From the IMG/VR virus record IMGVR_UViG_3300016644_000052, positions 1-64,000 of that record: a DNA stretch of 64,000 nt; one strand, written 5' to 3'. The position numbers and the translations under genes are program-made. Below, in pieces: positions 1 through 56,085 of this stretch. A model generated the notes under the pieces. That model searched no databases. It was not told the origin of the DNA and worked only from the letters and a program-made list of their open reading frames with translations. The DNA is from a virus. How positions within the stretch are numbered: position 1 is the stretch's first letter; every line of letters begins with the position of its first letter.

Positions 1-1844
1 CCGCGATTGACCCTATCTTGCTGCGATCCAGCAGCAGCTTGATCGGCAGCCTGTGCCGCAGCAAGAAGCGGACCAAGATTGATGTTCTTGCCTTCGTTCT
101 CGTTCATGAACTTGGCCCGGTTGTAGCGATCCCAGGCCGCAGTGGCTTTGGCAACTGCGGCCTGATGTCCAGCATCCAGACGAGCTTGGGTGTCATTGGC
201 AGCAACAGCCCGTTCTACGTTTTCGTTGCTGTACTCTTCGATCAGCTTACTGGCTCGGCTATCATCAAAGTAGTTACCAGCTTGATTGCCACCAAAGAAC
301 CAAGTCGGCAGATTGCGCGTAAAGATGTTCGAGTTGAGGCTGTTGCCAGCAATCACCCCAGCAGACGCTGCGTTGATCGATTTGCCCTTATTGGCCGCAT
401 CGCTGATAATGCTGATAAGCTTTTCTCGGATAAAGCCTTGGCCCATACCTTGTAGGCCAGGATGGCTCTTATCCAGTTCCGCGGCAATTTCGTCGACCGA
501 GCGGCGGTCCCTAGCAGCAGCAATATACTGCGTTGCCATGTTGTTGGGATTACGCTCCATGTCGGCATTGGCTGAGCCAATCTCGCCATAAATCTCACCC
601 AGGCTGGAATAAGCCGTCGTTGCAGCATTCATGCGCTTACCCCGGTGCTCGCCAGAAGAACGTTCATAGAACTGGTCAATCAGACGAGCAGCTTCGGCAG
701 GATCCTTGGCATTGAGAATTGCATCACGCTGTTGAACCGTCATTCCAGCTTGAGCGGGATTATCAAATTCCCACTTCACAAACTGGGCTTGCTGCTCCAC
801 CGTAGCCTTGTGCGGATCGACGCCGAACATTTTGACGAAGTTGTCTCGACGTTCTTTGCGCCACTGAGCAATACCCGAAGCCGAGCCGCCATCACCCTGA
901 GCGCCGCCATAGCCACCCTCAGCGTGGAAATTGCCCAAGAGGCCTGCAACTACCGGAGCACTAAATCCGCTGTTCTTGAGCGTCGTTGCAACAGCTTTCT
1001 GTTGGGAGCCAAGAGTGAAATCACTAGCCCCGCCGCCACCATTGGCACTGCCAGAGTAGCCACCGCCATCTGAGCCAGACATGCCGCTTGTATCTGGAAA
1101 GCTCGAATTAATGCGGCCCATCACCAGGTTGAATGCTTTAGGGCTGAGATTTCCGGAGCGAGCGATACGCAGAGCATCGCTGCGATCAAACGCATCACGA
1201 TCGACTTGCATGTAAAACTTGTCGGCTTCATCGGCTGCCGCTCGGTCGGTAGTTTCCCAACCAAAGCGAGTCCCGCTCTGATCGTAGGCTTGTTGGGTTG
1301 TCGCCCGATTCCAGTAGTTAGTGAGACCGGAGAAAATTTTGCTCTGGGCGTCTGTCGCACCCTTCAACGAGAAATTCTTGAACAGGTCAGGATTTTCATC
1401 CCGCAGTTTTGCTAGACCGACCGTATTACCCGTCTCGGCCAGAGCCATAGCCTGCATAAGCAGCGGAGCCTTGGAGTCTTCGGTCTTAGTCTGGTTGAAC
1501 TCGTAGTTGCTCTTTTCCAGACCAAGCTTGCTATTGGCTTGGTTGTAGAGTGAACCAGTCCGAGCACCAGCGGCTGCCAGGCTTTCACCCGACAGGCGGT
1601 TCTTGTCGAACCCGTTGAACAAAGCGCCAGTCCGCAGCGCTTCTTCGTAAGCAGCCGGATCCTGATACTTCAGGAGTTCCGCAGCAAAAGCCTTGTTGAC
1701 CCGATCATTGATGCTGGCATCAACTTCGTTGATCCCGTTGCGGGCAGCATCGAATGCACTAGCCAGAGTACGAGAGAAGCTCTCGACACCGGACATGCTA
1801 TTCCGGAAGTCGGGAGCTGCGACTTCACGCCAGGTAAGAGCCAT
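1..1844 (-). CDS. virion-associated peptidoglycan hydrolase / internal virion protein, partial (3' end lies left of the window)
   Basis: Absent from the ORF track because there is no stop in the window. ATG at 1844 with AAGGA upstream; my own translation stays open to position 1 (about 614 codons). Contains GLLGNFHAEGGYGG..GSASGIAQWRKERRDNF, which resembles the phage tail lysozyme domain. Lies in the late structural block. Confidence 0.6.
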   Translation of the reverse strand, partial: MALTWREVAAPDFRNSMSGVESFSRTLASAFDAARNGINEVDASINDRVNKAFAAELLKYQDPAAYEEALRTGALFNGFDKNRLSGESLAAAGARTGSLYNQANSKLGLEKSNYEFNQTKTEDSKAPLLMQAMALAETGNTVGLAKLRDENPDLFKNFSLKGATDAQSKIFSGLTNYWNRATTQQAYDQSGTRFGWETTDRAAADEADKFYMQVDRDAFDRSDALRIARSGNLSPKAFNLVMGRINSSFPDTSGMSGSDGGGYSGSANGGGGASDFTLGSQQKAVATTLKNSGFSAPVVAGLLGNFHAEGGYGGAQGDGGSASGIAQWRKERRDNFVKMFGVDPHKATVEQQAQFVKWEFDNPAQAGMTVQQRDAILNAKDPAEAARLIDQFYERSSGEHRGKRMNAATTAYSSLGEIYGEIGSANADMERNPNNMATQYIAAARDRRSVDEIAAELDKSHPGLQGMGQGFIREKLISIISDAANKGKSINAASAGVIAGNSLNSNIFTRNLPTWFFGGNQAGNYFDDSRASKLIEEYSNENVERAVAANDTQARLDAGHQAAVAKATAAWDRYNRAKFMNENEGKNINLGPLLAAAQAADQAAAGSQQDRVNR

Positions 1845-1859
1845 GATCTATCCTTTGGT

Positions 1860-2258
1860 TCAGCCGCCGTTCCAGGCAGCCATCCGGTTCTGGTCGACGT
1901 ATTGCTGGATCTGTGCGGGCGTCTGACCTTCAGTGAAGCCACGAGCACGGGCACGATCTTCGATCGAGGTGTTGTAGGTCTTGATCGAGTTGGCCATGTT
2001 GGCGTTGGCAAACTTCTTCTGGAACTCGAACTGCTTGTTGGCCAAGCTCAGCTGCTTGAAAGCACCAAACAGGCTGCCCAGCGTCTGGAGACCGGCCAAG
2101 GCCATGCTCGCCTTGTCTTTGAAGTTCATCTGACCAAAGCCGCCTTGGCTCGGCATCAGCGCCTGATCGAAGCCATTAAGCCAACTAGCCTGCTGATCCA
2201 GGAAAGACTGCGGCAGAGAGAACGATGGCTGACCAGTATCAACATTGAGCAAAGACAT
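1860..2258 (-). CDS. hypothetical virion protein
   Basis: 132-aa track ORF, tightly packed between structural genes on the same strand. Confidence 0.5.
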   Translation of the reverse strand: MSLLNVDTGQPSFSLPQSFLDQQASWLNGFDQALMPSQGGFGQMNFKDKASMALAGLQTLGSLFGAFKQLSLANKQFEFQKKFANANMANSIKTYNTSIEDRARARGFTEGQTPAQIQQYVDQNRMAAWNGG

Positions 2259-2270
2259 GGACGCGACTCC

Positions 2271-4658
2271 TTAGATACTTGACGGCAACGCTGGAGTCAG
2301 AGTTGCGGTAGTGAATTCTGAGATCATTCCCAGGGAGATTTCTGCGATGTCAGAACCTGTCATTAAGGTTCGAGCGAGAAACTGGCCGGGAGTTTCCAAT
2401 GCGTTTCCGAAACTAGTGCCGGTTAAACTCATTGGATCAAGCATACCTTTATCATAGCCGACAATTTGTGCATAGGTGTTAGCAGCTTCAGCTGCTTGCT
2501 TTTCGTAAGAAGCCTGGAGATCAGTGATCTTTCCCATGACTTCACGGGCCGAAGCTTCAACATAGCCGGCAATGCCTGTACCAACGGCGCTGGTCAGTCC
2601 GATCAATCCCTGAGCAGACATCAGTCCGTTCCAGGCAGACGAAAGATTGCCACCAGCCAGCAGGTTTCCACCAACCGCCATACCAACGAAGGTGGTGATA
2701 GAAGCGATCAGCGCCCCCCACTTCTCACCAAAGATCGCAACCGAGACTTTGCCCAGGATCTGCATGATCAGGGAGGAGGCAATGGTATAAACAATGGCGC
2801 CGGCGATCAGAGCCAATGTCCCAGACAGACCGATTGCTGTACCGATGGAGGTCAGGATTGCTGCACCTTCCGCACCAAAAGGCGGAAAAACAATGGTGAG
2901 CGTAACGATCGCAGCAAAGAGGATGAACTTGAAGAAGCCGGTTTGATACCACTTCTTTTTGACGATCACGTAAGAGTTGAGCACCAGGTAGACGCAGGTC
3001 GTCATGAGCTGCGTGCTCTGGATCAAGCTCATCTCGTCGAGCGTGGCATAGTGCAGCGGCACCAGAAATCCACTCTCTTCCAGGTCTTCCAGCGCTGACC
3101 TGGCACTGATCAGAACAGCCTTATCGCGGTACACGTTGTTGTGATGGAAAGCGCTTATGATCGTCAGCTTACGCCAGGTGCTCGGGCCATCCTGCCAGCT
3201 GATCGTGAAGGACGTTCGATTGACTGAAATCGTGTCCAGGTAGGAGACGGGATCAGTTGCAACCCAATAACCAACAGGGTCGGGATTCAGGTCGATCCAG
3301 AGATCACCAGTCTTGGCTCCGTCCCTGACCAGACCTGTTCCGACTACCTCGGAAGCATCTTCAAAGTGAACGCCCACATCATAGACCACAGGATCACGAT
3401 TGGTGCTGACGTACACATTGAAGCCGGGCTGGCTGTCCTGGTTTGCTCCATCTGCTTCCGGCAGCAGACCAAGTTCGGCAAGCCAGGCTCGCTTGAAGAA
3501 ACGGTAGATGTACTCTTTGCCAGCGTTTTCCTTGGTATTCAGGGGAACACCATGAACAATGTAGGCATAGTCGATATCCCCGATGTCGGGGTTTTCCTTC
3601 ATCTTGGATACGAGGTCATCGTACCGCTGACCGGTGACTTTTTTGAAAGCCTTCTTGGAATAGGTATAGACGTTGGGAGCCGGGTGGTCGGGCACGAACA
3701 CGTTGTCCAGCATGACCGGAATAATAGGCAGGAATTCACCTTCCAGCTGCGAAACCCAGATGGCGTTGTCCAGCACATCATTGCCGCTGCCGTTCTTGTA
3801 GATCCAATAGATCGGACTGGACTCGCTTACGCCTGTGAGACGCTGTGTGTCTGATTTGGTTCGATAGTAGTACGTGCCATCGTAGAGGTGATAGTAGAAG
3901 TCGACAGTTAGTCTGGTCTTAATTGAGTAGGCTACGCCGTCTGACCCAATACCAACGTAAGATACTTTCTCGTAAACATTGGTGTAGCTCCACGAAACGT
4001 CATCAGATGTATCCACGCTTTCTTCAAGAATGGCCACATACGAATCAAAATCTTGGGCTAAAGGATCTGCATTGACCCACTCGCCATAAGCCCACGGCCC
4101 AATCGTCGTGTGATTGACCCTGGTGTACATCGCATAGATGTATGTGCTGCTCGTGCTGAAGTCGGCAGGGACAAAACTACCCAGCGTTGAGCTGCCGTAA
4201 TATACGGTTATCGTGTTGGCAGCTGCATTGTAGGTCGAGGTCCAACCAAGCCCATAGATTGTCGGGTGGTTCTGCAAAACCCACTGCTCAGCCCAGTAGG
4301 TATAGACGCCCTTCTTGGTTTCCAGCTTGTAGAAGTTGATCCCCTCGTTCCGCCCACGGGGAATCTGTGCAGCCACCTTTTGCTGGTTGATGATAGCCCG
4401 ACCACCCAGACCACCTACAGGCACACCGACCCAGCGATCATATTCGCTATCCAAAGCCCAATTGAAGAACTTGCGCATGTTGAGTCCGGGGCTACGCAGG
4501 TAGCCTGACCGGATCACATCTGCGGCAGAGTAGCGGGAGTTGGTGATGATATTTGCCGTCACCAACCCTTTGAGGAAGTTGGCGCGCTCAGTGATGTCGC
4601 CGGCCAGGTTATAGACCGTCGAAGCGACATAGACTTCTTCTCCGCCAAAAAACCCCAC
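2271..4658 (-). CDS. large virion structural/ejection protein with a C-terminal multi-TM Gly/Ala-rich region
   Basis: 795-aa ORF. The last roughly 230 aa are hydrophobic and Gly/Ala-rich (FILFAAIVTLTIVF.., GLSGTLALIAGAIVYTIASS.., FVGMAVGGNLLAGG). Position matches the N4-like structural module. Confidence 0.6.
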   Translation of the reverse strand: MGFFGGEEVYVASTVYNLAGDITERANFLKGLVTANIITNSRYSAADVIRSGYLRSPGLNMRKFFNWALDSEYDRWVGVPVGGLGGRAIINQQKVAAQIPRGRNEGINFYKLETKKGVYTYWAEQWVLQNHPTIYGLGWTSTYNAAANTITVYYGSSTLGSFVPADFSTSSTYIYAMYTRVNHTTIGPWAYGEWVNADPLAQDFDSYVAILEESVDTSDDVSWSYTNVYEKVSYVGIGSDGVAYSIKTRLTVDFYYHLYDGTYYYRTKSDTQRLTGVSESSPIYWIYKNGSGNDVLDNAIWVSQLEGEFLPIIPVMLDNVFVPDHPAPNVYTYSKKAFKKVTGQRYDDLVSKMKENPDIGDIDYAYIVHGVPLNTKENAGKEYIYRFFKRAWLAELGLLPEADGANQDSQPGFNVYVSTNRDPVVYDVGVHFEDASEVVGTGLVRDGAKTGDLWIDLNPDPVGYWVATDPVSYLDTISVNRTSFTISWQDGPSTWRKLTIISAFHHNNVYRDKAVLISARSALEDLEESGFLVPLHYATLDEMSLIQSTQLMTTCVYLVLNSYVIVKKKWYQTGFFKFILFAAIVTLTIVFPPFGAEGAAILTSIGTAIGLSGTLALIAGAIVYTIASSLIMQILGKVSVAIFGEKWGALIASITTFVGMAVGGNLLAGGNLSSAWNGLMSAQGLIGLTSAVGTGIAGYVEASAREVMGKITDLQASYEKQAAEAANTYAQIVGYDKGMLDPMSLTGTSFGNALETPGQFLARTLMTGSDIAEISLGMISEFTTATLTPALPSSI

Positions 4659-15769: not shown

Positions 15770-16804
15770 TTAAATTTCTCCGAAGGCTACACCGTAGCCA
15801 GTGCCAGTAGGCAACGTAGCGGGGTTGGCGTACTTGGCGCCGAAGCCTGTGGATGAGGACCACGGATAAGCGGTAATGTAGGGGGAGCCGTTATGCGCGA
15901 CGGCGATTGCGTCACCGGAGGGAGAGAATGCTACGCTGTAGCTCGTGAGGGTAGGTAACGTAGCCGGATTGGAATACTTAGTCCCGAAGCCAGAACTGCT
16001 CCACGGATAGGCAGTGATGTAGGGGCTGGTGGCATGGGCGACTGCGATTGCGTCACCGGAGGGAGAGAACGCTACACCAAAGCCAGTTCCGGTAGGTAAC
16101 GTAGCCGGATTGGAATACTTAGCCCCAAACCCAGAACTGCTCCAAGGGTAGGCTATGATATAAGGACTGGCATTATTAACAACTGCAATCGCATTACCAG
16201 ATGGTGAGAACGCTACGCTGTAGCTCGTGCCGGTTAGCGCCACACCCGGATTGGAATACTTAGTCCCAAATCCAGAGCTGCTCCAAGGGTAGGCGGTGAT
16301 ATAGGGACTAGTGGTATGGGCAACTGCGATAGCATCACCAGAAGGTGAGAAGGCTACGCCGTTACCAGTTCCGGTAGGCAAGGTGGCTGGGTTAGTGAAC
16401 TTAGTCCCAAACCCAGAACCGCTCCAAGGGTATGCAGTGATGTAGGGGCTGACGCTATGAGCGACTGCAATGGCGCTTCCAGAAGGCGAGAAGGCTATGC
16501 CGCGACCAGTTCCGGTAGGCAGCGTGCCGGGATTAGCATACTTAGTCCCGAACCCAGAACTGCTCCACGGATAGGCGGTGATATAAGGAGATCCGTTGGA
16601 AGCCACTGAAATTGCATCGCCGGATGGCGTGAAGGCCGCGCTATACGCTGTATCACCCGCAGGTAAGGTGCTGGGATCGCTGAACTTGGTTCCAAATCCA
16701 GAGCTGCTCCACGGGTAGGCGATGATGATACCATCGCTGTGTCCTACCGCAATAAACTGCTTCTTAGCAGCAGCAGTCCCACCAATAGCCTTCTGCCACA
16801 ACAT
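15770..16804 (-). CDS. seven-blade beta-propeller repeat protein, probable distal tail/receptor-binding component
   Basis: Seven copies of a roughly 43-aa unit (FSPSGDAIAVAH..SPYITAYPWSSSGFGTKYSNPATLPTGTG.GVA), similar to the TolB-type PD40 motif. Its start overlaps the tail fibre stop. Confidence 0.7.
   Translation of the reverse strand: MLWQKAIGGTAAAKKQFIAVGHSDGIIIAYPWSSSGFGTKFSDPSTLPAGDTAYSAAFTPSGDAISVASNGSPYITAYPWSSSGFGTKYANPGTLPTGTGRGIAFSPSGSAIAVAHSVSPYITAYPWSGSGFGTKFTNPATLPTGTGNGVAFSPSGDAIAVAHTTSPYITAYPWSSSGFGTKYSNPGVALTGTSYSVAFSPSGNAIAVVNNASPYIIAYPWSSSGFGAKYSNPATLPTGTGFGVAFSPSGDAIAVAHATSPYITAYPWSSSGFGTKYSNPATLPTLTSYSVAFSPSGDAIAVAHNGSPYITAYPWSSSTGFGAKYANPATLPTGTGYGVAFGEI
15800..16700. 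repeat. tandem 129-bp coding repeats (7 units)
   Basis: Long near-identical DNA stretches recur with a 129-bp period, for example gtaggtaacgtagccggattggaatacttag at about 15953 and 16093. Confidence 0.8.
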
Positions 16805-18903
16805 TAAACATCACCCACGCGAGCGCCGTAGATCGTCGTGCCGACCTTCCAAAGCGTGATGACAGTGTAGCCAGTAGTGGCCAGTGTCGGGGCCGTGCCG
16901 CCGTTCGTCTCCCAGACAACGCCGAGGGTCGTCCAAGTGATCGAGTACGCCGTGCCGTCATCGACCATCAGTGTGATCGACTGACCCGAAGCCCAATTGG
17001 CTTGTCCCGGTGTGCGGCTTGCCCCCAGCGTCCAGGTCTGGATCGAACCGTTGTTGGGATCGAGGTTGACGGTGGCACCGTCAGTGATGGCGAACACCTC
17101 TTCGGTGTAGCCGTCGTTCAGCACCGGCTTTGACAGCGTCTTGTTGGTCAACGTTTGTGCATCGGTAGTGCCTACCGCATCACCGGTTGGCGCAATCTTG
17201 CCTGCCCAATTGACCAGATCTGGGTCATAGGCCTGGACAGTTACGCCAATGGCGCCACTAGAAAGATAGCCGGCAGAAGCGTGATTGCCCCAACCGTGGG
17301 CTGCGTCCCAGTTGCTGATCTTGGCTGTGGTTACCCCAGCAGCAGCCGAAGCTGCAAACACCGGGTCTGTCTCAGTATAATTAGTCAGGTATCCAGCGGA
17401 GGCATGGTTACCCCAGCTGTAAGCGGTATCCCAATTGCTTACATTACCGGCAGTAATTGCGCCTGCCGGGCTGGCAGCAAACACCGGATCTGTTTCTGTA
17501 AAACTGGTAAGATAACCTGCATCATTAACAAATGCAGAAACGCTAGTCGGCTTGCCGGTCAAATTGGCCCAGGTAAAGTTGACCGTAGTAATGTAAGAAC
17601 CAACCGGCTGCTTACCATCGAGTGCGGTCTGGAGACCGGTAATGGCAGAGATAGCGTGCTCATGCTCGATTGGAGCATAGAGACTGCCACCACCGCTATC
17701 TGCCGTCACATATGCCGCAACCCAGGTGTTGTTGGTGGTGCGGATCCGCATCTCATTCGAAGTTGAGTTGAAATACAGCGCTCCAGGAATGAGAGCATTA
17801 CCGTCATTGTCCAGCGTTGGGTTGCTCGACTTTGCGCCGAGGTAGCGCTTACCAAAGTCAGCAAAGGTAGTGACTGCTGCATCACGGGCCGCTTCAGACG
17901 CAGCTTTAGCAGTCTCAGCGTTGCTGGCACTGGTCGCTGCATTGCTGGCGCTTGTTGCAGCTTCAGATGCCCTGGTCGTAGCTGTAGCGGCTTGCTGACT
18001 GGCAGTGGTAGCAGAACCGGCAGCAGAAGTAGCGCTGTTAGCTGCATTGGTCGCACTGGTTCCCGCAGCTGTTGCACTTGCCGAGGCAGCTGTTGCTGAA
18101 TTGCCAGCATTGGTCGCCGAGGTGGCAGCAGCAGACGCCTGGTTGGTTGCGGTGGTTGCAGAAGAAGCCGCAGCAGTCTTGCTGTTATCAGCCGCAGTTG
18201 CACTGCTTGCTGCATTGGTGGCAGAGGCAGCAGCAGCTGTCTTGGAACTGGCTGCGTCATTCTTGCTAGTAAGAGCGGCTGCTGCACTGGCCGCAGCTTC
18301 GTTAGCTTTAGTCGTTGCTGTGGTTGCTGAAGCACTTGCAGCGGTTGCACTGTTAGCAGCCGTGCTAACACTGGAGCCAATGGAGGCGAGGCTATTAGCC
18401 GCAGACGTTGCGGAATTAGCTGCACTGGTTGCACTACTGGCAGCATTGTTAGCCTGGGTAGTTGCTGTGCTTGCTTGAGTGGTGGCGGTTGCTGCCGATT
18501 GGGCAGCAGCAGTCTTACTTGCTTCGATCGCAGCTACGTCAGTATTGATAGAAGCAGCAGCCGCAATTGCTCCGCTTTCTGCGGACTGGGCGGCAATCTT
18601 GCTGGCATTGGCCGCAGTAGCCGCAGCCTCGGCTGCGTTTTTAGCGGTTACCGCAGACTGGGCAGAACTGGTTGCACTGGTCTGAGAAACAATCGCACTT
18701 TGAGCCGCTTCCACAGCATCGTCGCGGGCTGCGACCAGATCGCCGACTGCACCAATTGACTCAAGCTTTTGGGCTACCAGAGCAATCTGAGGCAGGTTGG
18801 CTTCAACCGTCTCGACCACATCGTAGGCCTTGCCCAGTTGGTTCTCAACCGTAGCAGTCTGCGGATTTCCCTTGGGATCGTTGATATTACGGATCATACC
18901 CAA
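16804..18903 (-). CDS. tail fibre protein
   Basis: 699 aa. The N-terminal third is Ala/Ser/Thr-rich quasi-repeat coil (AASSATSAANSATSAA...). The C-terminal part has repeated ETDPVFAAS..W..GNHASAGYL units and a beta-rich distal domain. Confidence 0.7.
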   Translation of the reverse strand: MGMIRNINDPKGNPQTATVENQLGKAYDVVETVEANLPQIALVAQKLESIGAVGDLVAARDDAVEAAQSAIVSQTSATSSAQSAVTAKNAAEAAATAANASKIAAQSAESGAIAAAASINTDVAAIEASKTAAAQSAATATTQASTATTQANNAASSATSAANSATSAANSLASIGSSVSTAANSATAASASATTATTKANEAAASAAAALTSKNDAASSKTAAAASATNAASSATAADNSKTAAASSATTATNQASAAATSATNAGNSATAASASATAAGTSATNAANSATSAAGSATTASQQAATATTRASEAATSASNAATSASNAETAKAASEAARDAAVTTFADFGKRYLGAKSSNPTLDNDGNALIPGALYFNSTSNEMRIRTTNNTWVAAYVTADSGGGSLYAPIEHEHAISAITGLQTALDGKQPVGSYITTVNFTWANLTGKPTSVSAFVNDAGYLTSFTETDPVFAASPAGAITAGNVSNWDTAYSWGNHASAGYLTNYTETDPVFAASAAAGVTTAKISNWDAAHGWGNHASAGYLSSGAIGVTVQAYDPDLVNWAGKIAPTGDAVGTTDAQTLTNKTLSKPVLNDGYTEEVFAITDGATVNLDPNNGSIQTWTLGASRTPGQANWASGQSITLMVDDGTAYSITWTTLGVVWETNGGTAPTLATTGYTVITLWKVGTTIYGARVGDV

Positions 18904-26662: not shown

Positions 26663-26683
26663 ACCGCTAAACTAATCTCCAGT

Positions 26684-26720
26684 GAACCCTGTCACCTCAC
26701 GGTGGCAGGGTTCGTTTTAT
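26684..26720 (+). terminator. rho-independent terminator
   Basis: 13-bp stem GAACCCTGTCACC/GGTGGCAGGGTTC (one G-T pair), loop TCAC, followed by GTTTTA. Confidence 0.6.
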
Positions 26721-33201: not shown

Positions 33202-33215
33202 AATTGCTGCCTTTC

Positions 33216-33250
33216 GGGACACCCTTCATCGGGTGTCCCGTATTTTTTTA
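33216..33250 (+). terminator. rho-independent terminator
   Basis: GGGACACCC-TTCATC-GGGTGTCCC followed by GTATTTTTTTA. Confidence 0.8.
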
Positions 33251-37723: not shown

Positions 37724-37803
37724 CTGACCAAATCACCACCATCACAGAGCCTCGCTTCCACCCGGAAGCGGGGCTTTTTGCATTTGCAGGAACCATCATC
37801 ACC

Positions 37804-41425: not shown

Positions 41426-42237
41426 GCAAGATCATGCGGGCCTACATGGACACGCTGACCCACAAGCCATCATACCCCCGCCGCAAAGACGCATGGAAAG
41501 CCATGCAGATCTACTGGGAAAACGTCGATCCAGCCCTGATCGACGAACCCATGTGCCGGCAGTACCGGGAACGACGTAAAGTCAGCGATGCCACGGCCCG
41601 CTACGAGCTGCTGCAACTATCCACTGCGCTCAACTGGGCCAGAACCAATGGCCCCAAACTTTCCTACAAGCGGACCATCTGGCTCCCATCCACGCCTGAA
41701 CGCAAAGAGCGTCACCTTACGCGGGAAGAATTTCACCGTTTCTTTGCCGAAGTAAGGGCAGACCATGCCCGGCTCTATGTTATGATCGGAATCTACACCC
41801 TGGCCCGGCCAGGGGCGATTCTCGAACTGACCTGGGACCGGGTCGATTTCATGCGCCGCCTGATCGATTTCAGTCCAGCGGGACGAATCGGTACACGCAA
41901 GCGGCGCACTGTCACTCCGATCAGCGACAATCTCCTGCCTCATCTCCAGCGAGCGTTCGAAGCTCGCACTTCACAATTCGTGATCGAGCATGGCGGCGAA
42001 CCCCTCAAGAGCATCAAGAAAGCCTTCGAGGCGGCCAGCAAGAGGAGCGCTGTCCACGCAACCCCCTATACGCTGCGTCATACCGGCGCTGTTTGGGCTG
42101 CCGAAGCAGGCGTTCCCATGGCGGAACTCGCTCAATTCATGGGACATGATGACGATCGGACGACTCAAAAACACTATGCCCGCTTCAGCCCGAATTATCT
42201 GTCGGGCGTAGCCAATGCCATCGGTGCAGTGGCCTGA
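41236..42237 (+). CDS. int: tyrosine recombinase / phage integrase
   Basis: Arm-binding-like N-terminus (YSVQRFRGGFAIVW). Catalytic elements ARPGAILELTWDRVDF, HTLRHTGAVW and GHDDDRTTQKHY. Confidence 0.85.
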   Translation: MPKHADEYSVQRFRGGFAIVWQEPDGTGNRVRRRRQLASEDRASAEAEARQLWEGTDPAAWTVGKIMRAYMDTLTHKPSYPRRKDAWKAMQIYWENVDPALIDEPMCRQYRERRKVSDATARYELLQLSTALNWARTNGPKLSYKRTIWLPSTPERKERHLTREEFHRFFAEVRADHARLYVMIGIYTLARPGAILELTWDRVDFMRRLIDFSPAGRIGTRKRRTVTPISDNLLPHLQRAFEARTSQFVIEHGGEPLKSIKKAFEAASKRSAVHATPYTLRHTGAVWAAEAGVPMAELAQFMGHDDDRTTQKHYARFSPNYLSGVANAIGAVA

Positions 42238-42304
42238 GGTTCACGTTGAACCTTGGGCCACTGTTTTTTTAGTCAGTAAATGTGGTCTAAGTCATTGAAA
42301 AGAT

Positions 42305-44633: not shown

Positions 44634-44658
44634 AGCTCATACTTTTCATCACATTGCG

Positions 44659-44690
44659 AAAGGCCTCTTCCCACCGGGAAGAGGCCTTTT
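44659..44690 (+). terminator. rho-independent terminator
   Basis: 14-bp stem AAAGGCCTCTTCCC-ACC-GGGAAGAGGCCTTT. Confidence 0.8.
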
Positions 44691-44711
44691 GCTTATCAAG
44701 GATAGACACCA

Positions 44712-46028: not shown

Positions 46029-46529
46029 ATGGAAGGCCGTACATTATTCGCTCTCATTCAAGTCCTTTGCAACAAGCTGTTTGAGCGGGAAGAGGCCCGG
46101 ATCGACTCGGTTCTCAAGACCATCTGGACCAAGAATATCGCCCTGAGCCGGGTCAACCATGACGGCTTCATCTACAAGGGTGACTATTATCGGCCCAAGT
46201 CTCTTCCCAATGCGGCCTCGGTCAAGGCAATCCTCCACTCCGAACTGGATGACACCATGGAGGCTTTTCTTGCCGACCAGCGGCGGGTCAAGGACGAGCG
46301 CAAGACCATTGAGCAAGTCCTGACCAAGCTGCTGCGTCCGTGCCAAGACTTCACGGAAATCCGCAACGCTCTGCCCAACTGTCTGGCCGACCTGCTCGAA
46401 CAGACTCAAGGCATCCAGCGAACCAGCGAGGAAGCATGGACCCTGGCTCAGGATGAGCGGGGAATGCGCCAATACCTCAAGGTTCGCCCCCTGATGGAAT
46501 TCTATTCCGCAGCCAGGCTACTTTATTGA
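46029..46529 (+). CDS. hypothetical replication-module protein
   Basis: 166-aa ORF between the helicase and polymerase genes; its stop overlaps the polymerase start. Confidence 0.5.
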   Translation: MEGRTLFALIQVLCNKLFEREEARIDSVLKTIWTKNIALSRVNHDGFIYKGDYYRPKSLPNAASVKAILHSELDDTMEAFLADQRRVKDERKTIEQVLTKLLRPCQDFTEIRNALPNCLADLLEQTQGIQRTSEEAWTLAQDERGMRQYLKVRPLMEFYSAARLLY

Positions 46530-48541
46530 TGCGACACCTGACCTTCACCAATGCCAGCACCTACCCGGTCTGTTTCCTGGTTCCGACCATCCGCAAGGAT
46601 GAAATCGAAAAGGAATACCTTGATCCGTTCCAGGTCAATGCAGACCAGGTGTTGGTCCTCGACCTCCATTATTCCCAAGACAAAAAGAAGACCCCGGCAG
46701 CTGAGATCAAGCAGTACATCGAAGAGGAACTGGTTCCGACCTTCGAGCAGATGGGCTGCCAGTACCTGCTCGTTGCTGACGGCGACTACTTCAAGGCCCT
46801 GACCAAGGCGAGCAAGGTCGAAGCCAATCTCGGCTACGTCCTTGACTGCGCCTGGGGCGACTGGAAGGTGATCTATGTTCCGAATTATCGGGCGATTTTT
46901 TACGATCCTGACAAGACGAGAGCCAAGATCAACCAGGCTATGCAGGCCTTCACCGAGCACCGCACCGGTGTTTACCAGGCGCCTGGGGCACACATCATCA
47001 AGACTGCCCATTATCCGGCGACTTACGGCGATATCTTCGCTTGGCTCAACCGGCTCCTCGACATGGACTGCGATCTTGCCTGTGACATCGAGACCTTCAG
47101 TCTCAAGCACCACACCGCAGGAATCGGCACTATCAGCTTCGCCTGGAACCAACACGAAGGAATAGCCTTCGCCGTTGACCTCAACGAGGCTGAAGCCCAG
47201 CAAATCCGCAGTGCTTTGCGGATGTTCTTCTGCGCCTTCCAGCACAAGCTGGTGTTCCACAACATCGCTTTCGATGCCTACGTGCTGATCTACCAGTTGT
47301 TCATGACAGACATCCTCGACACCGAGGGTCTGCTGAACGGCATGGAAGTCATGCTCCGGGACTGGGACTGCACCAAGCTGATCACCTATCTCGCCACCAA
47401 TTCGTGTGCGGGCAACAAGCTCAGTCTCAAGGACCAGGCCCAGGAATATTCTGGCAACTATGCCCTGACGGACATCAAGGATATCCGCCAGATTCCTTTG
47501 GAACACTTGCTGCGCTACAACCTGATCGACACGTTTTCGACCTGGTATGTGCATAACAAGCATTACCAGACCATGGTCAATGACCAGCAACTCGGCGTCT
47601 ATGAAGAGATCTTCAAGCCCGCCACGCTGGACATCATTCAGATGCAGCTGACCGGGATGCCGCTCAACATGGAGCGGGTGAAGGAAGTCAAGCAGCTGCT
47701 CGAAGCTGACTACAGCCGTGAGCTGGACCGGATCATGAACTCACCCATTGTGGGCCGGTTCACTTATGATCTCAACGAGGCCTGGGTCGAAAAGCGCAAC
47801 GCCAAGCTCAAGAAAAAGCGAGTCAGCTTGGCTGACGCCAATGAGACCTTCAATCCCAATTCCAACCCGCAGCTGCAAAAGCTGCTCTACGAAATGCTTG
47901 GTCTGCCTGTCTTGGCTCTGACTGACAGCAAGGAACCAGCGACAGATGGCTCAACCCTGAAAGCGCTCAAGAACCACACCCAGGATCCGCAGATCGTCGA
48001 GTTCCTGGATGCCTTGCTCGGCTACTCTGCCGTCAACAAGATCCTGACCAGCTTTCTTCCAGCCATGGAGAATGCAGCTCAGGGACCGGATGGCTGGCAT
48101 TACCTGTTCGGCAACTTCAACTTAGGCGGCACGCTATCGGGCCGCCTCAGCAGTTCTGATCCAAACCTTCAGAATCTGCCGGCCAATTCCAGCTATGCCA
48201 AGCTGATCAAGTCCTGCTTCCAGGCACCGCCTGGTTGGCTGTTTGTTGGTCTGGACTTCGCTTCGCTAGAAGATCGCATCTCTGCGCTTACCTCCAAGGA
48301 TCCCAACAAGCTCAAGGTCTATAAAGACGGTTACGATGGTCACTCCTTGCGGGCTTATGCCTATTTCAAGGAGCAGATGCCCGACATCCTGCAAGCTGAG
48401 GGTCGGCGTGTCTTTGAAGTGCAACAAGATGGCCAGATTTTCTATCTGTTCGAGGGTGATGAGATCATCACTCCGAACGGACAGACCATGACAATTGAAG
48501 CTTATCAATCCAGAATGAAACAATTGGAGAGTGCGGCATAG
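46526..48541 (+). CDS. family A DNA polymerase, N-terminal fragment (3'-5' exonuclease, thumb, motif A)
   Basis: Exo I CDIETFSL and motif A VGLDFASLEDRISAL. Ends at TAG after a non-conserved 45-50 aa tail. Confidence 0.85.
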   Translation: MMRHLTFTNASTYPVCFLVPTIRKDEIEKEYLDPFQVNADQVLVLDLHYSQDKKKTPAAEIKQYIEEELVPTFEQMGCQYLLVADGDYFKALTKASKVEANLGYVLDCAWGDWKVIYVPNYRAIFYDPDKTRAKINQAMQAFTEHRTGVYQAPGAHIIKTAHYPATYGDIFAWLNRLLDMDCDLACDIETFSLKHHTAGIGTISFAWNQHEGIAFAVDLNEAEAQQIRSALRMFFCAFQHKLVFHNIAFDAYVLIYQLFMTDILDTEGLLNGMEVMLRDWDCTKLITYLATNSCAGNKLSLKDQAQEYSGNYALTDIKDIRQIPLEHLLRYNLIDTFSTWYVHNKHYQTMVNDQQLGVYEEIFKPATLDIIQMQLTGMPLNMERVKEVKQLLEADYSRELDRIMNSPIVGRFTYDLNEAWVEKRNAKLKKKRVSLADANETFNPNSNPQLQKLLYEMLGLPVLALTDSKEPATDGSTLKALKNHTQDPQIVEFLDALLGYSAVNKILTSFLPAMENAAQGPDGWHYLFGNFNLGGTLSGRLSSSDPNLQNLPANSSYAKLIKSCFQAPPGWLFVGLDFASLEDRISALTSKDPNKLKVYKDGYDGHSLRAYAYFKEQMPDILQAEGRRVFEVQQDGQIFYLFEGDEIITPNGQTMTIEAYQSRMKQLESAA

Positions 48542-48554
48542 CCGCAAACCCTAA

Positions 48555-48594
48555 GGGAACCGTCCGCTCGTGATGATGGTGGCGGGCGGTTCCC
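48555..48594 (+). other. 13-bp-stem hairpin in the polymerase spacer
   Basis: GGGAACCGTCCGC...GCGGGCGGTTCCC, immediately after the TAG. Confidence 0.6.
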
Positions 48595-48722
48595 ACCAAA
48601 TTGAAAACGAATCTGTACTGAATTGAGAAATATTAACCAAGTAGGGTCAGATTTTCTTAACGTAGGTGAATAGATTGTTCATCTGCAAATCAGACTAAGC
48701 GCTTGGGAAAAGGAGACTTATT

Positions 48723-49466
48723 GTGGGAAGTGCTGTCGTTATAAAAGCTAACGCAGAGATCAAAGAGCTTGATTCGACGGCATTCGATGTAGCGCAAATT
48801 AACTCCATTGAGACCCGTTATAAACCGCTGCGCCAAGACTCTAAGGCACCGACATTCGCCCTTACATACCAGGGCACTTATCGTACCCTGATGGTCAACT
48901 GCGGCTTTCCGGAAGCCAAGGCCAAGTCGATCGAGCAACGCTACCACGAGATGTACGAAGTCAGTGATCGCTGGGTCGCTGCCAAGCTCGATGAAGCTAC
49001 CCGCACTGGCTACGTCACCGTCGCTTTCGGTCTGCGGGTAAGAACCCCGCTGCTCAAGCAAGTCATTCGCGGCACCAGCAAGACCCCATTTGAAGCAGAG
49101 GCTGAAGGCCGGACTGCTGGCAATGCGCTCGGTCAGTCCTGGTGCCTGCTCACTTCCCGTGCTGGCTCCGAATTTCTCGGCAAGGTCCGCAAGAGCCAGT
49201 ACAAGTACGACATTCGTCCTACCTCTCAGATCCATGACGCCCAGTATTTTCTGGTGCGAGATAACATCAGCGTCGTCGAGTTTACCAACCGCCATCTCGT
49301 CGAAGCTGTCCAGTGGCAAGACCACCCAGAGATCTATCACGACCTCGTGAAGCTCGGCGGCGAACTCTCCATCTTCTATCCTTCCTGGAAAGAAGAGATC
49401 GGCATCCCCAACGGGGCAAGCCGTCAAGAGATATTCGCCATCATAGACAAAGTAATGAGCAACTAA
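48723..49466 (+). CDS. family A DNA polymerase, C-terminal fragment (motifs B and C)
   Basis: GTG start with AAGGAG 7 nt upstream. Motif B RQDSKAPTFALTYQG and motif C SQIHDAQYFLV. Confidence 0.8.
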   Translation: MGSAVVIKANAEIKELDSTAFDVAQINSIETRYKPLRQDSKAPTFALTYQGTYRTLMVNCGFPEAKAKSIEQRYHEMYEVSDRWVAAKLDEATRTGYVTVAFGLRVRTPLLKQVIRGTSKTPFEAEAEGRTAGNALGQSWCLLTSRAGSEFLGKVRKSQYKYDIRPTSQIHDAQYFLVRDNISVVEFTNRHLVEAVQWQDHPEIYHDLVKLGGELSIFYPSWKEEIGIPNGASRQEIFAIIDKVMSN

Positions 49467-56050: not shown

Positions 56051-56085
56051 AAAGCCCCCCAGGAAACTGGGGGGCTTTCTTTTAT
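56051..56085. terminator. bidirectional rho-independent terminator between convergent blocks
   Basis: AAAGCCCCCC-AGGAAACT-GGGGGGCTTT, flanked by A-runs and T-runs. Confidence 0.8.

Follow-up and report, generated by a model that had tools for sequence, protein, structure and literature searches.

Evidence for a naturally split family A DNA polymerase with a conserved terminal module at the break in an uncultured N4-like phage

Why is the DNA polymerase of an uncultured phage encoded in two pieces? In a stretch of 64,000 nt (IMG/VR virus record IMGVR_UViG_3300016644_000052, positions 1 to 64,000; from here: the window), which originates from an uncultured N4-like (Schitoviridae-type) podophage, the family A DNA polymerase occupies two genes, polA-N with 670 or 671 and polA-C with 247 encoded residues, that lie 181 nt apart. 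The original prediction, made from the letters without database searches, considered a naturally split two-subunit polymerase, a small self-splicing intron, or the scar of a lost intron or homing-endonuclease element. Here we report that the enzyme is very probably naturally split and produced from two separately translated genes, with add-ons at the new termini that stem from gene fission. In favor of the first of the three explanations, many divergent uncultured relatives are split at this very site and have homologous tail and head segments, the DNA in the gap is variable, and both add-ons are under purifying selection.

The layout of the two open reading frames (ORFs), all coordinates referring to the plus strand of the window, is as originally described from the sequence and the ORF list. 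The upstream gene, polA-N (46526..48541), encodes 671 residues from a TTG at 46526 or 670 residues from an ATG at 46529, the latter being the start chosen by the gene caller in an identical public contig. Its product comprises the 3′-5′ exonuclease, the thumb, motif A of the palm (DFASLEDRISAL, 48254..48289), the first helices of the fingers and a terminal tail module, and ends at a TAG stop codon (48539..48541). The downstream gene, polA-C (48723..49466), provides the remaining part of the fingers, in which motif B lies (48831-48875), as well as the palm, which contains motif C (QIHDAQ, 49227-49244). It is preceded by the Shine-Dalgarno sequence AAGGAG (48710-48715) that had been noted before, followed by a 7-nt spacer and the GTG start codon (together 48710..48725), and this choice of start is in line with the heads of 70 homologous C-terminal fragments. 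The Pfam domain DNA_pol_A (PF00476) was found on both gene products, and the motifs of family A polymerases of the N4 gp39-like type (DFASLEDR, RQDSKAPTFALTYQG, QIHDAQ) are all present, with intact catalytic motifs. The identical 247-residue C protein was called on 6 public contigs; therefore, the split is no assembly error.

The nearest cultured relatives, at about 66-72% DNA identity, are Pseudomonas phage Zuri, Stenotrophomonas phages Piffle and Pokken and Erwinia phage phiEaP8. Three of these phages, Zuri, Piffle and phiEaP8, have the polymerase as a single coding sequence (CDS) and served as reference for the borders of the interruption. Both ORFs of the window are 58-61% identical to these intact enzymes, polA-N matching their N-terminal ~620 residues. 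The alignment with uninterrupted N4-like polymerases, which had been proposed for this purpose, showed that homology stops at ...AYFKEQMPDI (48388) and restarts at VAQINSIE (48789). The last residues homologous to unsplit polymerases (MPDI, 48377-48388) are followed by the linker LQAEG, which is conserved in the tail alignment of 98 fragments (48377..48403 in total). The segment without counterpart in intact polymerases thus amounts to about 400 nt and consists of LQAEG plus a 45-residue tail, the 181-nt spacer and a 22-residue head. At the tip of the fingers, a surface loop that separates helix M from the O-helix contains the cut; judging by the positions of motifs A and B and the structure of Pol I, this loop connects the fingers helix GYDGHSLRAYAYF with the helix before the O-helix. 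As in other genes in pieces, an essential gene is here broken into two ORFs, each with its own signals for translation, and relatives have no interruption at this site.

With the C ORF as query, 1773 proteins were retrieved at E<=1e-10. The best 120 clusters, which come from metagenomes and were formed at 90% identity, are all stand-alone C-terminal polymerase fragments of 225-426 residues, many of them on contigs of 65-77 kb, and their N-termini define three break points. The site of the window (type 1) is shared by at least 70-73 of these 120 clusters, which have a homologous head. About 28 clusters are cut after KLKVY (type 2) and about 5 before motif A (type 3). The type-3 clusters P0085, P0090, P0102 and P0108 carry an unrelated, predicted-helical head (MQDLLNKLVSIKNRVTLDDYDELIQLASKYGIQEQVSECFDYEEGW/IFCGLDFASLED). 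A rough neighbor-joining tree of the C-fragments, poorly supported in its deep branches, intermingles the split states and requires 22 parsimony changes for its 114 leaves, which hints at repeated gain or loss of the split.

For type 1, nine fetched loci, the window included, were compared. Their spacers measure 59, 61, 181 (window), 709, 851, 854, 1012, 1019 and 1816 nt and hold between 0 and 4 unrelated ORFs. The 59- and 61-nt gaps contain a hairpin with a T-run and nothing else, while each gap of 709-1816 nt contains one to four small unrelated ORFs, among them an HD-domain-like ORF in locus L008 and a match to the Acb3 family in locus L021. The type-1 gap seems to take up accessory genes as cargo, and these may have anti-defence roles. 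In L021 (logan:SRR31214409_9509) the segment 1201-1899 between the polymerase halves contains the gene with the Pfam match to Acb3 (PF25187), together with three small ORFs. Among 50,697 phage records, type-1 tails and heads were not found.

The tail module of the N subunit (RRVFEVQQDGQIFYLFEGDEIITPNGQTMTIEAYQSRMKQLESAA, 48404..48538) had been regarded as non-conserved. This view has to be revised, as the alignment of relatives and the profile search identify it as a conserved protein module of about 45 residues. The tail of the window (...EGRRVFEVQQDGQIFYLFEGDEIITPNGQTMTIEAY...) aligns readily with those of relatives such as L015 (...EGKRAFKITQDGETHYLLIGDDVELPDGTVMKVEDF...) and L008 (...EGSRCFEVQIGGKKLWLHETELVTYLGQEMTGLEFWERL...). 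AlphaFold2, run on the last 116 residues of the N subunit of the window with 94 aligned sequences, predicted two beta-hairpins and a C-terminal helix with a predicted local distance difference test (pLDDT) score of 94-96. The four predicted strands correspond to 48410-48427, 48434-48451, 48461-48469 and 48485-48493, the predicted helix to 48494-48535.

A profile of 46 positions built from 59 tails yielded 122 matches at E<=1e-3 in 1.84 billion representative proteins. About 105 of the 122 (clusters at 50% identity) are family A polymerase fragments, in which the tail is always located at the extreme C-terminus; the remaining dozen are long repeat proteins that each align in numerous short, partial stretches and are apparently spurious. 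In a six-frame scan of the window and all fetched loci with the hidden Markov model (HMM) of the tail, polymerase N-pieces alone were matched; therefore, the module is not present in other genes of the window or these loci. Pfam families gave chance-level matches alone on tail and head (Tudor-like, cupin), a Foldseek search of the tail model against PDB and BFVD gave no significant match, and the insert DNA and the tail peptide matched none of the 50,697 phage records. No further copies of the insert were detected within the window, so it is not a dispersed mobile repeat. When the last 116 residues of the N ORF were used as query, many "middle pieces" of 87-194 residues were found as well that span motif A to the tail; in many relatives the polymerase is therefore distributed over three or more genes.

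The segment preceding the point at which polymerase homology restarts, the head of the C subunit (MGSAVVIKANAEIKELDSTAFD, 48723..48788), is likewise conserved. It follows the pattern M-h-x-L-x-x-x-A-x-I-x-E-I-x-x-x-x-F-D in 70 clusters; the type-1 consensus is M-L-K-L-x-P-D-A-x-I-E-E-I-x-x-x-x-F-D, then V-x-x-INSI, at a head length of about 21 residues. Across the nine loci, the proportion of synonymous differences (pS) was 0.73-0.79 and hence saturated, while the proportion of nonsynonymous differences (pN) reached 0.37 in the tail and 0.36 in the head, giving a pN/pS of 0.47 for each of them, and 0.20 in the catalytic core. Since pN is held low while synonymous sites are saturated, both the translated tail and the translated head are under purifying selection.

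Tail and head moreover vary together. Type A tails have Val, Ala, Thr or Ser after EGRR and the second half ...GDxVxLPDG..., whereas type B tails have Cys after EGRR and the second half ...YLGxxMTGxELWE. The sub-type of the tail matched that of the head in 9/9 loci (A/A in 6/6, B/B in 3/3). The sole natural fusion is cluster P0009, in which the first tail hairpin is contiguous with the second half of the head (MPDIRLSEGKQAYKFGKGDKIEYFLEGDTLPIGATEITGKEFDV-AIINSIQ). AlphaFold2 predicted strands at residues 47-52, 55-60 and 70-72 of this insertion with pLDDT 77-87, and Foldseek matched the C-fragment of P0009 to Bst, Klenow and Pol theta. As modeled, P0009 is consistent with the tail hairpin and the head strand being neighbors at the fingertip.

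The second split site links these findings to cultured phages. The type-2 break lies 14 codons upstream of the window site (KLKVY/TDGYDGHS), and N-fragments of this type end in ...KLKVY-MGHTVYEVNINGTIHHIRDDATITFDGKTYTGEEFY. The tails of type 1 and type 2 are homologous (hhalign probability 98.8%, E=1.3e-16, 40 columns). The type-2 gap is filled by an HNH_3 endonuclease gene, the start of which runs over the last part of the tail-coding sequence (L013, L014, L022, L008 and Pylas). The type-2 split was found in 19 cultured-phage records, among them Klebsiella phage Pylas and the Escherichia phages Pollock, VEc25, AlfredRasser, PMBT57 and SP5M. Because these viable cultured phages carry the second-site split with a homologous tail, tail-bearing split polymerases support replication. 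For Pylas (L023, NC_049444.1, 861-4141) RefSeq joins the halves into one CDS and annotates an "HNH homing endonuclease intron" in it. The upstream piece of Pylas has the conserved tail at its end and then a stop codon, and the join is probably an annotation assumption. HNH genes also split the DNA polymerase of the N4-like Vibrio phages JA-1 and VchO139-I, where an intron was presumed by the authors (PMC3670811). The window polymerase shares with these HNH-interrupted N4-like enzymes the polymerase family and the presence of two pieces within the fingers and, with the Pylas/Pollock group, the homologous tail. It differs from that group, in which the cut is 14 codons upstream, an HNH gene is in the gap and the head is another one, while the window site has no endonuclease.

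These results suggest the following arrangement. Subunit N would contribute the exonuclease, the thumb, motif A of the palm and the fingers helices up to ...MPDI, and would end in the tail, folded as a mini-domain of about 45 residues. Subunit C, translated from its own Shine-Dalgarno sequence and GTG, would start with the head of about 21 residues and continue with the O-helix (motif B) and motif C. Both polypeptides would associate non-covalently, thereby rebuilding palm and fingers. Tail and head would be located on the two new ends, at the same point of the surface, where we infer that they most likely cap these ends and help to dock the halves. The split itself would have arisen by gene fission through a mobile insertion of the homing-endonuclease type, which for the window site is plausible by analogy; relatives have assorted cargo genes at the type-1 site, and the gap in the window is devoid of cargo. 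The scar of a lost homing-endonuclease element, as suggested originally, therefore stands as a plausible history in view of the homologous tail and the HNH genes at the second site, but the 181 nt of the window contain no detectable gene remnant.

Several points weigh against this scenario. Reassembly of N and C into an active enzyme is inferred from purifying selection and from the viable cultured phages with the sister split. Shared ancestry can equally explain the co-variation of tail and head. The tail may have another role, e.g. end-capping or partner binding. Between type-1 and type-2 heads there is no significant homology; the heads of the two split sites are thus not demonstrably related, which leaves one common mode of tail-head binding unsupported. 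Finally, neither an HNH gene nor any other recognisable homing endonuclease gene lies between the halves in 9/9 type-1 loci, so that the origin from a mobile element rests here on analogy.

Among the alternatives, the one that survives best holds that tail and head are a decayed split intein which has lost its catalytic blocks and still joins the fragments non-covalently, i.e. a decayed "fractured gene". We consider this possible, if on balance unlikely. The layout is that of fractured genes, with an N add-on, sometimes a free-standing homing endonuclease gene, and a C add-on (PMC2677866), and genuine split-intein pieces exist elsewhere in the same polymerase family (...GIVNHN/SSSDPNLQ in L008, MGVRRVYDLEIAEDHCYLANDIYVHN/SNPNLQ in P0138; slashes mark the junctions). 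The single PDB match of the tail profile was 9hth_A, the Aes123 PolB1 split intein (E=4.5e-5), which is a cysteine-less split intein (PMC11923092); the best stretch aligns intein block A (GDTIIDVSGKKMTIAEFYDS) with the second half of the tail (GDEIITPNGQTMTIEAYQS in the window). An HMM of tail plus head scored above composition-preserving shuffles (p<0.03) for 5/8 split inteins, the test set consisting of Npu DnaE (PDB-verified), Aes123 (supplement of PMC11923092), the L008 intein (from the locus) and five other intein sequences. An hhalign comparison with the 9-sequence tail+head profile was colinear with the end of the N-terminal intein piece (IntN) and the start of the C-terminal piece (IntC) at P=0.0066, and Foldseek gave a weak match to the IntN of Npu DnaE (44 columns, root mean square deviation 3.2 Å, E=5).

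However, no Pfam intein or Hint family was matched at E<=10 by 59 tails or 9 tail+head concatenates. With a larger profile the hhalign value was P=0.05, against 0.065 for a reversed-sequence control, and the 9-sequence tail+head profile searched against PDB gave 9hth at E=0.16 and no other intein. The candidate registers disagree, one pointing to block A and the other to the region after block B. Tail and head together have about 65 residues, about half a Hint fold; the L008 intein, although from the same polymerase family, gave no significant match; and small strand-rich motifs may converge. Compared with split inteins (Npu DnaE, gp41-1, Aes123 PolB1), the window has the order of add-on, gap and add-on in a phage replication gene in common and, for Aes123 PolB1, the weak local sequence similarity of its tail to block A. 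It differs in that its add-ons lack catalytic residues, measure about 65 instead of about 140 residues and have no Pfam intein match, leaving homology unproven.

Split inteins and tails also occur side by side. In L008 (IMGVR_UViG_3300036045_000010, 1-3723) the N4-like polymerase is present in at least 4 pieces. An IntN ORF (27-248) starts with CKVLTHEG... and the IntC with the above junction is part of the ORF 405-1001. Further 3′ follow a type-2 cut with an HNH-like ORF (910-1683) and a middle piece of 91 residues (1683-1958), then the HD-domain-like ORF (2401-2967) and the C piece (2971-3723). The proteins P0138, P0161, P0162, P0309 and P0335 are middle pieces whose N-terminus has the canonical C-terminal motif of inteins (MGVRRVYDLEIAEDHCYLANDIYVHN/SNPNLQNLP), while the tail module forms their other end. 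Because these middle pieces carry both, active-looking split inteins and the non-splicing tail coexist in one polypeptide.

An extension of the intein idea, which we put forward as speculative and rather doubtful, is that tail and head form a "fission module", a decayed, non-splicing split-intein fragment that travels with mobile insertions and clamps or caps the halves non-covalently. If true, introns and inteins would be joined by a third mechanism that lets selfish DNA break up an essential gene without harm, and the resulting gap would be a landing pad for accessory or anti-defence cargo.

That the polymerase gene is broken, or that the split is an assembly or sequencing artefact, might be suspected from a stop codon and a frame change in an essential gene. 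We judge this very unlikely. The identical protein is present on 6 contigs, the architecture recurs in more than 70 clusters at 90% identity and about 105 clusters at 50% identity, both add-ons are under purifying selection, the catalytic motifs are intact, and the sister split is known from lytic phages in culture.

A self-splicing group I (or II) intron in the 0.4-kb segment, which would give a spliced mRNA and a single-chain polymerase, is extremely unlikely, although introns are known from phage polymerase genes, RefSeq annotates the analogous HNH insertion of Pylas as an intron in a joined CDS, and the RNA 48370-48810 folds more stably than shuffled sequences (z=-4.98). The hallmark of group I introns is a P3-P8 catalytic core that is detectable by covariance models, while group II introns are recognised by their domain V/VI structure and are no shorter than about 600 nt. 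The covariance-model search that had been suggested for this case gave no match to Rfam group I or II models at E<=10 in 47800-49400 of the window or in Pylas, and none at the gathering score in 11 related loci; other relevant RNA families were not matched either. The non-homologous segment of about 400 nt is too short for a group II intron. The would-be intron ends are conserved as amino acids at saturated synonymous sites and fold as protein, and the C gene has its own Shine-Dalgarno sequence and start codon, at a position conserved in 70 clusters. The decisive observation is that the gaps of relatives either measure 59-61 nt with a terminator-like T-run hairpin or 0.7-1.8 kb with several independently initiated genes, neither of which an intron can explain. 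The intron proposed originally is thus rejected. An imperfect hairpin of about 17 bp within the tail-coding sequence (48446-48486, codons LFEGDEIITPNGQ) helps to make the folding energy of this segment low; relatives have not conserved it, and it is therefore probably incidental.

Add-ons at both new termini are also what an active split intein would have, which would trans-splice the halves into one covalent chain. We attach hardly any probability to this. Val, not Cys, Ser or Thr, is present at the start of the window tail and at +1 after the head. After ...LQAEGRR, at a position distinct from the fragment junction, the window has Val and its relatives have Ala, Thr, Ser or Cys; directly behind the head, almost every one of the 70 clusters has Val. 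The position of block B in the tail reads FEGD or SEED, not TxxH, and the head ends in F/Y/H-D/N; the HNF...HN segment with the terminal His-Asn is missing. Tail and head are moreover short (~65 residues in total) and have no Pfam intein match. Protein splicing is excluded because the catalytic residues are missing. Ribosomal bypassing, frameshifting or read-through to one chain, for which the stable stem-loops 3′ of the stop codon might be invoked, has a negligible chance given a 181-nt gap with multiple stops per frame (up to 1.8 kb with genes in relatives) and the independent Shine-Dalgarno sequence and start codon of the C gene.

The DNA between the two genes of the split polymerase reads as normal intergenic sequence: a stem-loop comes first, then an AT-rich tract and the ribosome-binding site. 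The spacer (48542..48722, 181 nt) has 44% GC, stops in three frames and no gene; its AT-rich part has 36% GC, compared with 55% for the whole window. The TAG at the end of the tail, the hairpin and the AT-rich tract with stops in all frames were all located where they had been placed originally. The GC-rich stem-loop (48555..48594) starts 14 nt past the stop codon, has a stem of 13-14 bp and a 12-nt loop (CGTGATGATGGT) and is not followed by a T-run; it is probably a terminator, an attenuator or an element of RNA stability. According to RNA folding, a second, compound stem-loop (48637..48705) lies in the AT-rich part just 5′ of the ribosome-binding site. The spacer RNA is more stable than shuffled sequences (z=-3.8). 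A scan for sigma-70 promoters and intrinsic terminators detected none within the spacer, and comparison of its sequence with phage records and the spacers of relatives (blastn, tblastx) revealed no similarity and no gene remnant.

Four relatives, L015 to L018, also have a strong GC-rich hairpin straight after the polA-N stop codon, and in two of them, L015 and L017, it is accompanied by a T-run. These hairpins (L015 3442-3500, L016 ~2785-2815, L017 3440-3500, L018 ~2655-2700) have similar loops, GTTGACG or GTTGATGC, on differing stems, and the recurrent loops may constitute a shared regulatory or processing signal. Elsewhere in the window, long GC-rich intergenic hairpins with stems of 10-18 bp, mostly followed by T-runs, are found at 26681-26716, 33215-33240, 37746-37777, 42226-42264, 44656-44692 and 56051-56078. 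They look like terminators of phage transcription, and the last of them (56051-56078), being symmetric, could work on either strand.

The order of genes around the polymerase locus, helicase, small ORF, DNA polymerase, exonuclease and primase, is conserved. At a distance from it, six tandem copies of a 141-nt unit (15860-16726, 73-85% identical) lie within the minus-strand ORF 15770-16804, and repeats with periods of 21 and 42 nt (17916-18450) in the next ORF. These ORFs probably encode repeat-containing, tail-fibre-like proteins.

Genes in pieces without inteins have precedents. In Aeromonas phage Aeh1, nrdA is split by mobE, and gp43 (PolB) of T4-like phages such as phage 25 is divided into 43A and 43B; the NrdA fragments of Aeh1 reassemble into an active enzyme without splicing (PMC2677866). 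Common to these cases and the window is an essential replication enzyme of a lytic phage split in two by a mobile insertion, which for the window is the origin proposed above. In contrast, they concern a ribonucleotide reductase and a family B polymerase for which no shared terminal add-on has been described, while the window has no endonuclease and possesses the tail/head pair. Pfu DNA polymerase, cut by engineering near the tip of the fingers through termination-reinitiation, is active as two chains (PMC3061061). The window polymerase resembles it in the cut near the fingers tip and the two chains, whereas the Pfu split is artificial, belongs to an archaeal family B enzyme and has no docking add-ons. 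In the literature searched we found no description of a conserved terminal module restricted to polymerase fragments.

Split replication genes are thus already known in phages; what is new here is the cut site and the conserved, fragment-restricted terminal module. The window provides a second fission site in family A polymerases, which is common in uncultured N4-like phages; the cultured phage records that were searched do not have it. Such a polymerase will be called truncated by annotation pipelines, or its pieces will be wrongly joined as an intron-containing gene. The cut at the tip of the fingers may alter nucleotide selection, as in the engineered Pfu split, and the tail/head pair would be a small natural heterodimerisation or capping element that is potentially usable. 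Given the accessory genes in the gap of relatives, the split would be a hotspot for cargo. Beyond this single locus, a terminal module common to two independent cut sites points to a tolerance of gene fission at the level of the protein.

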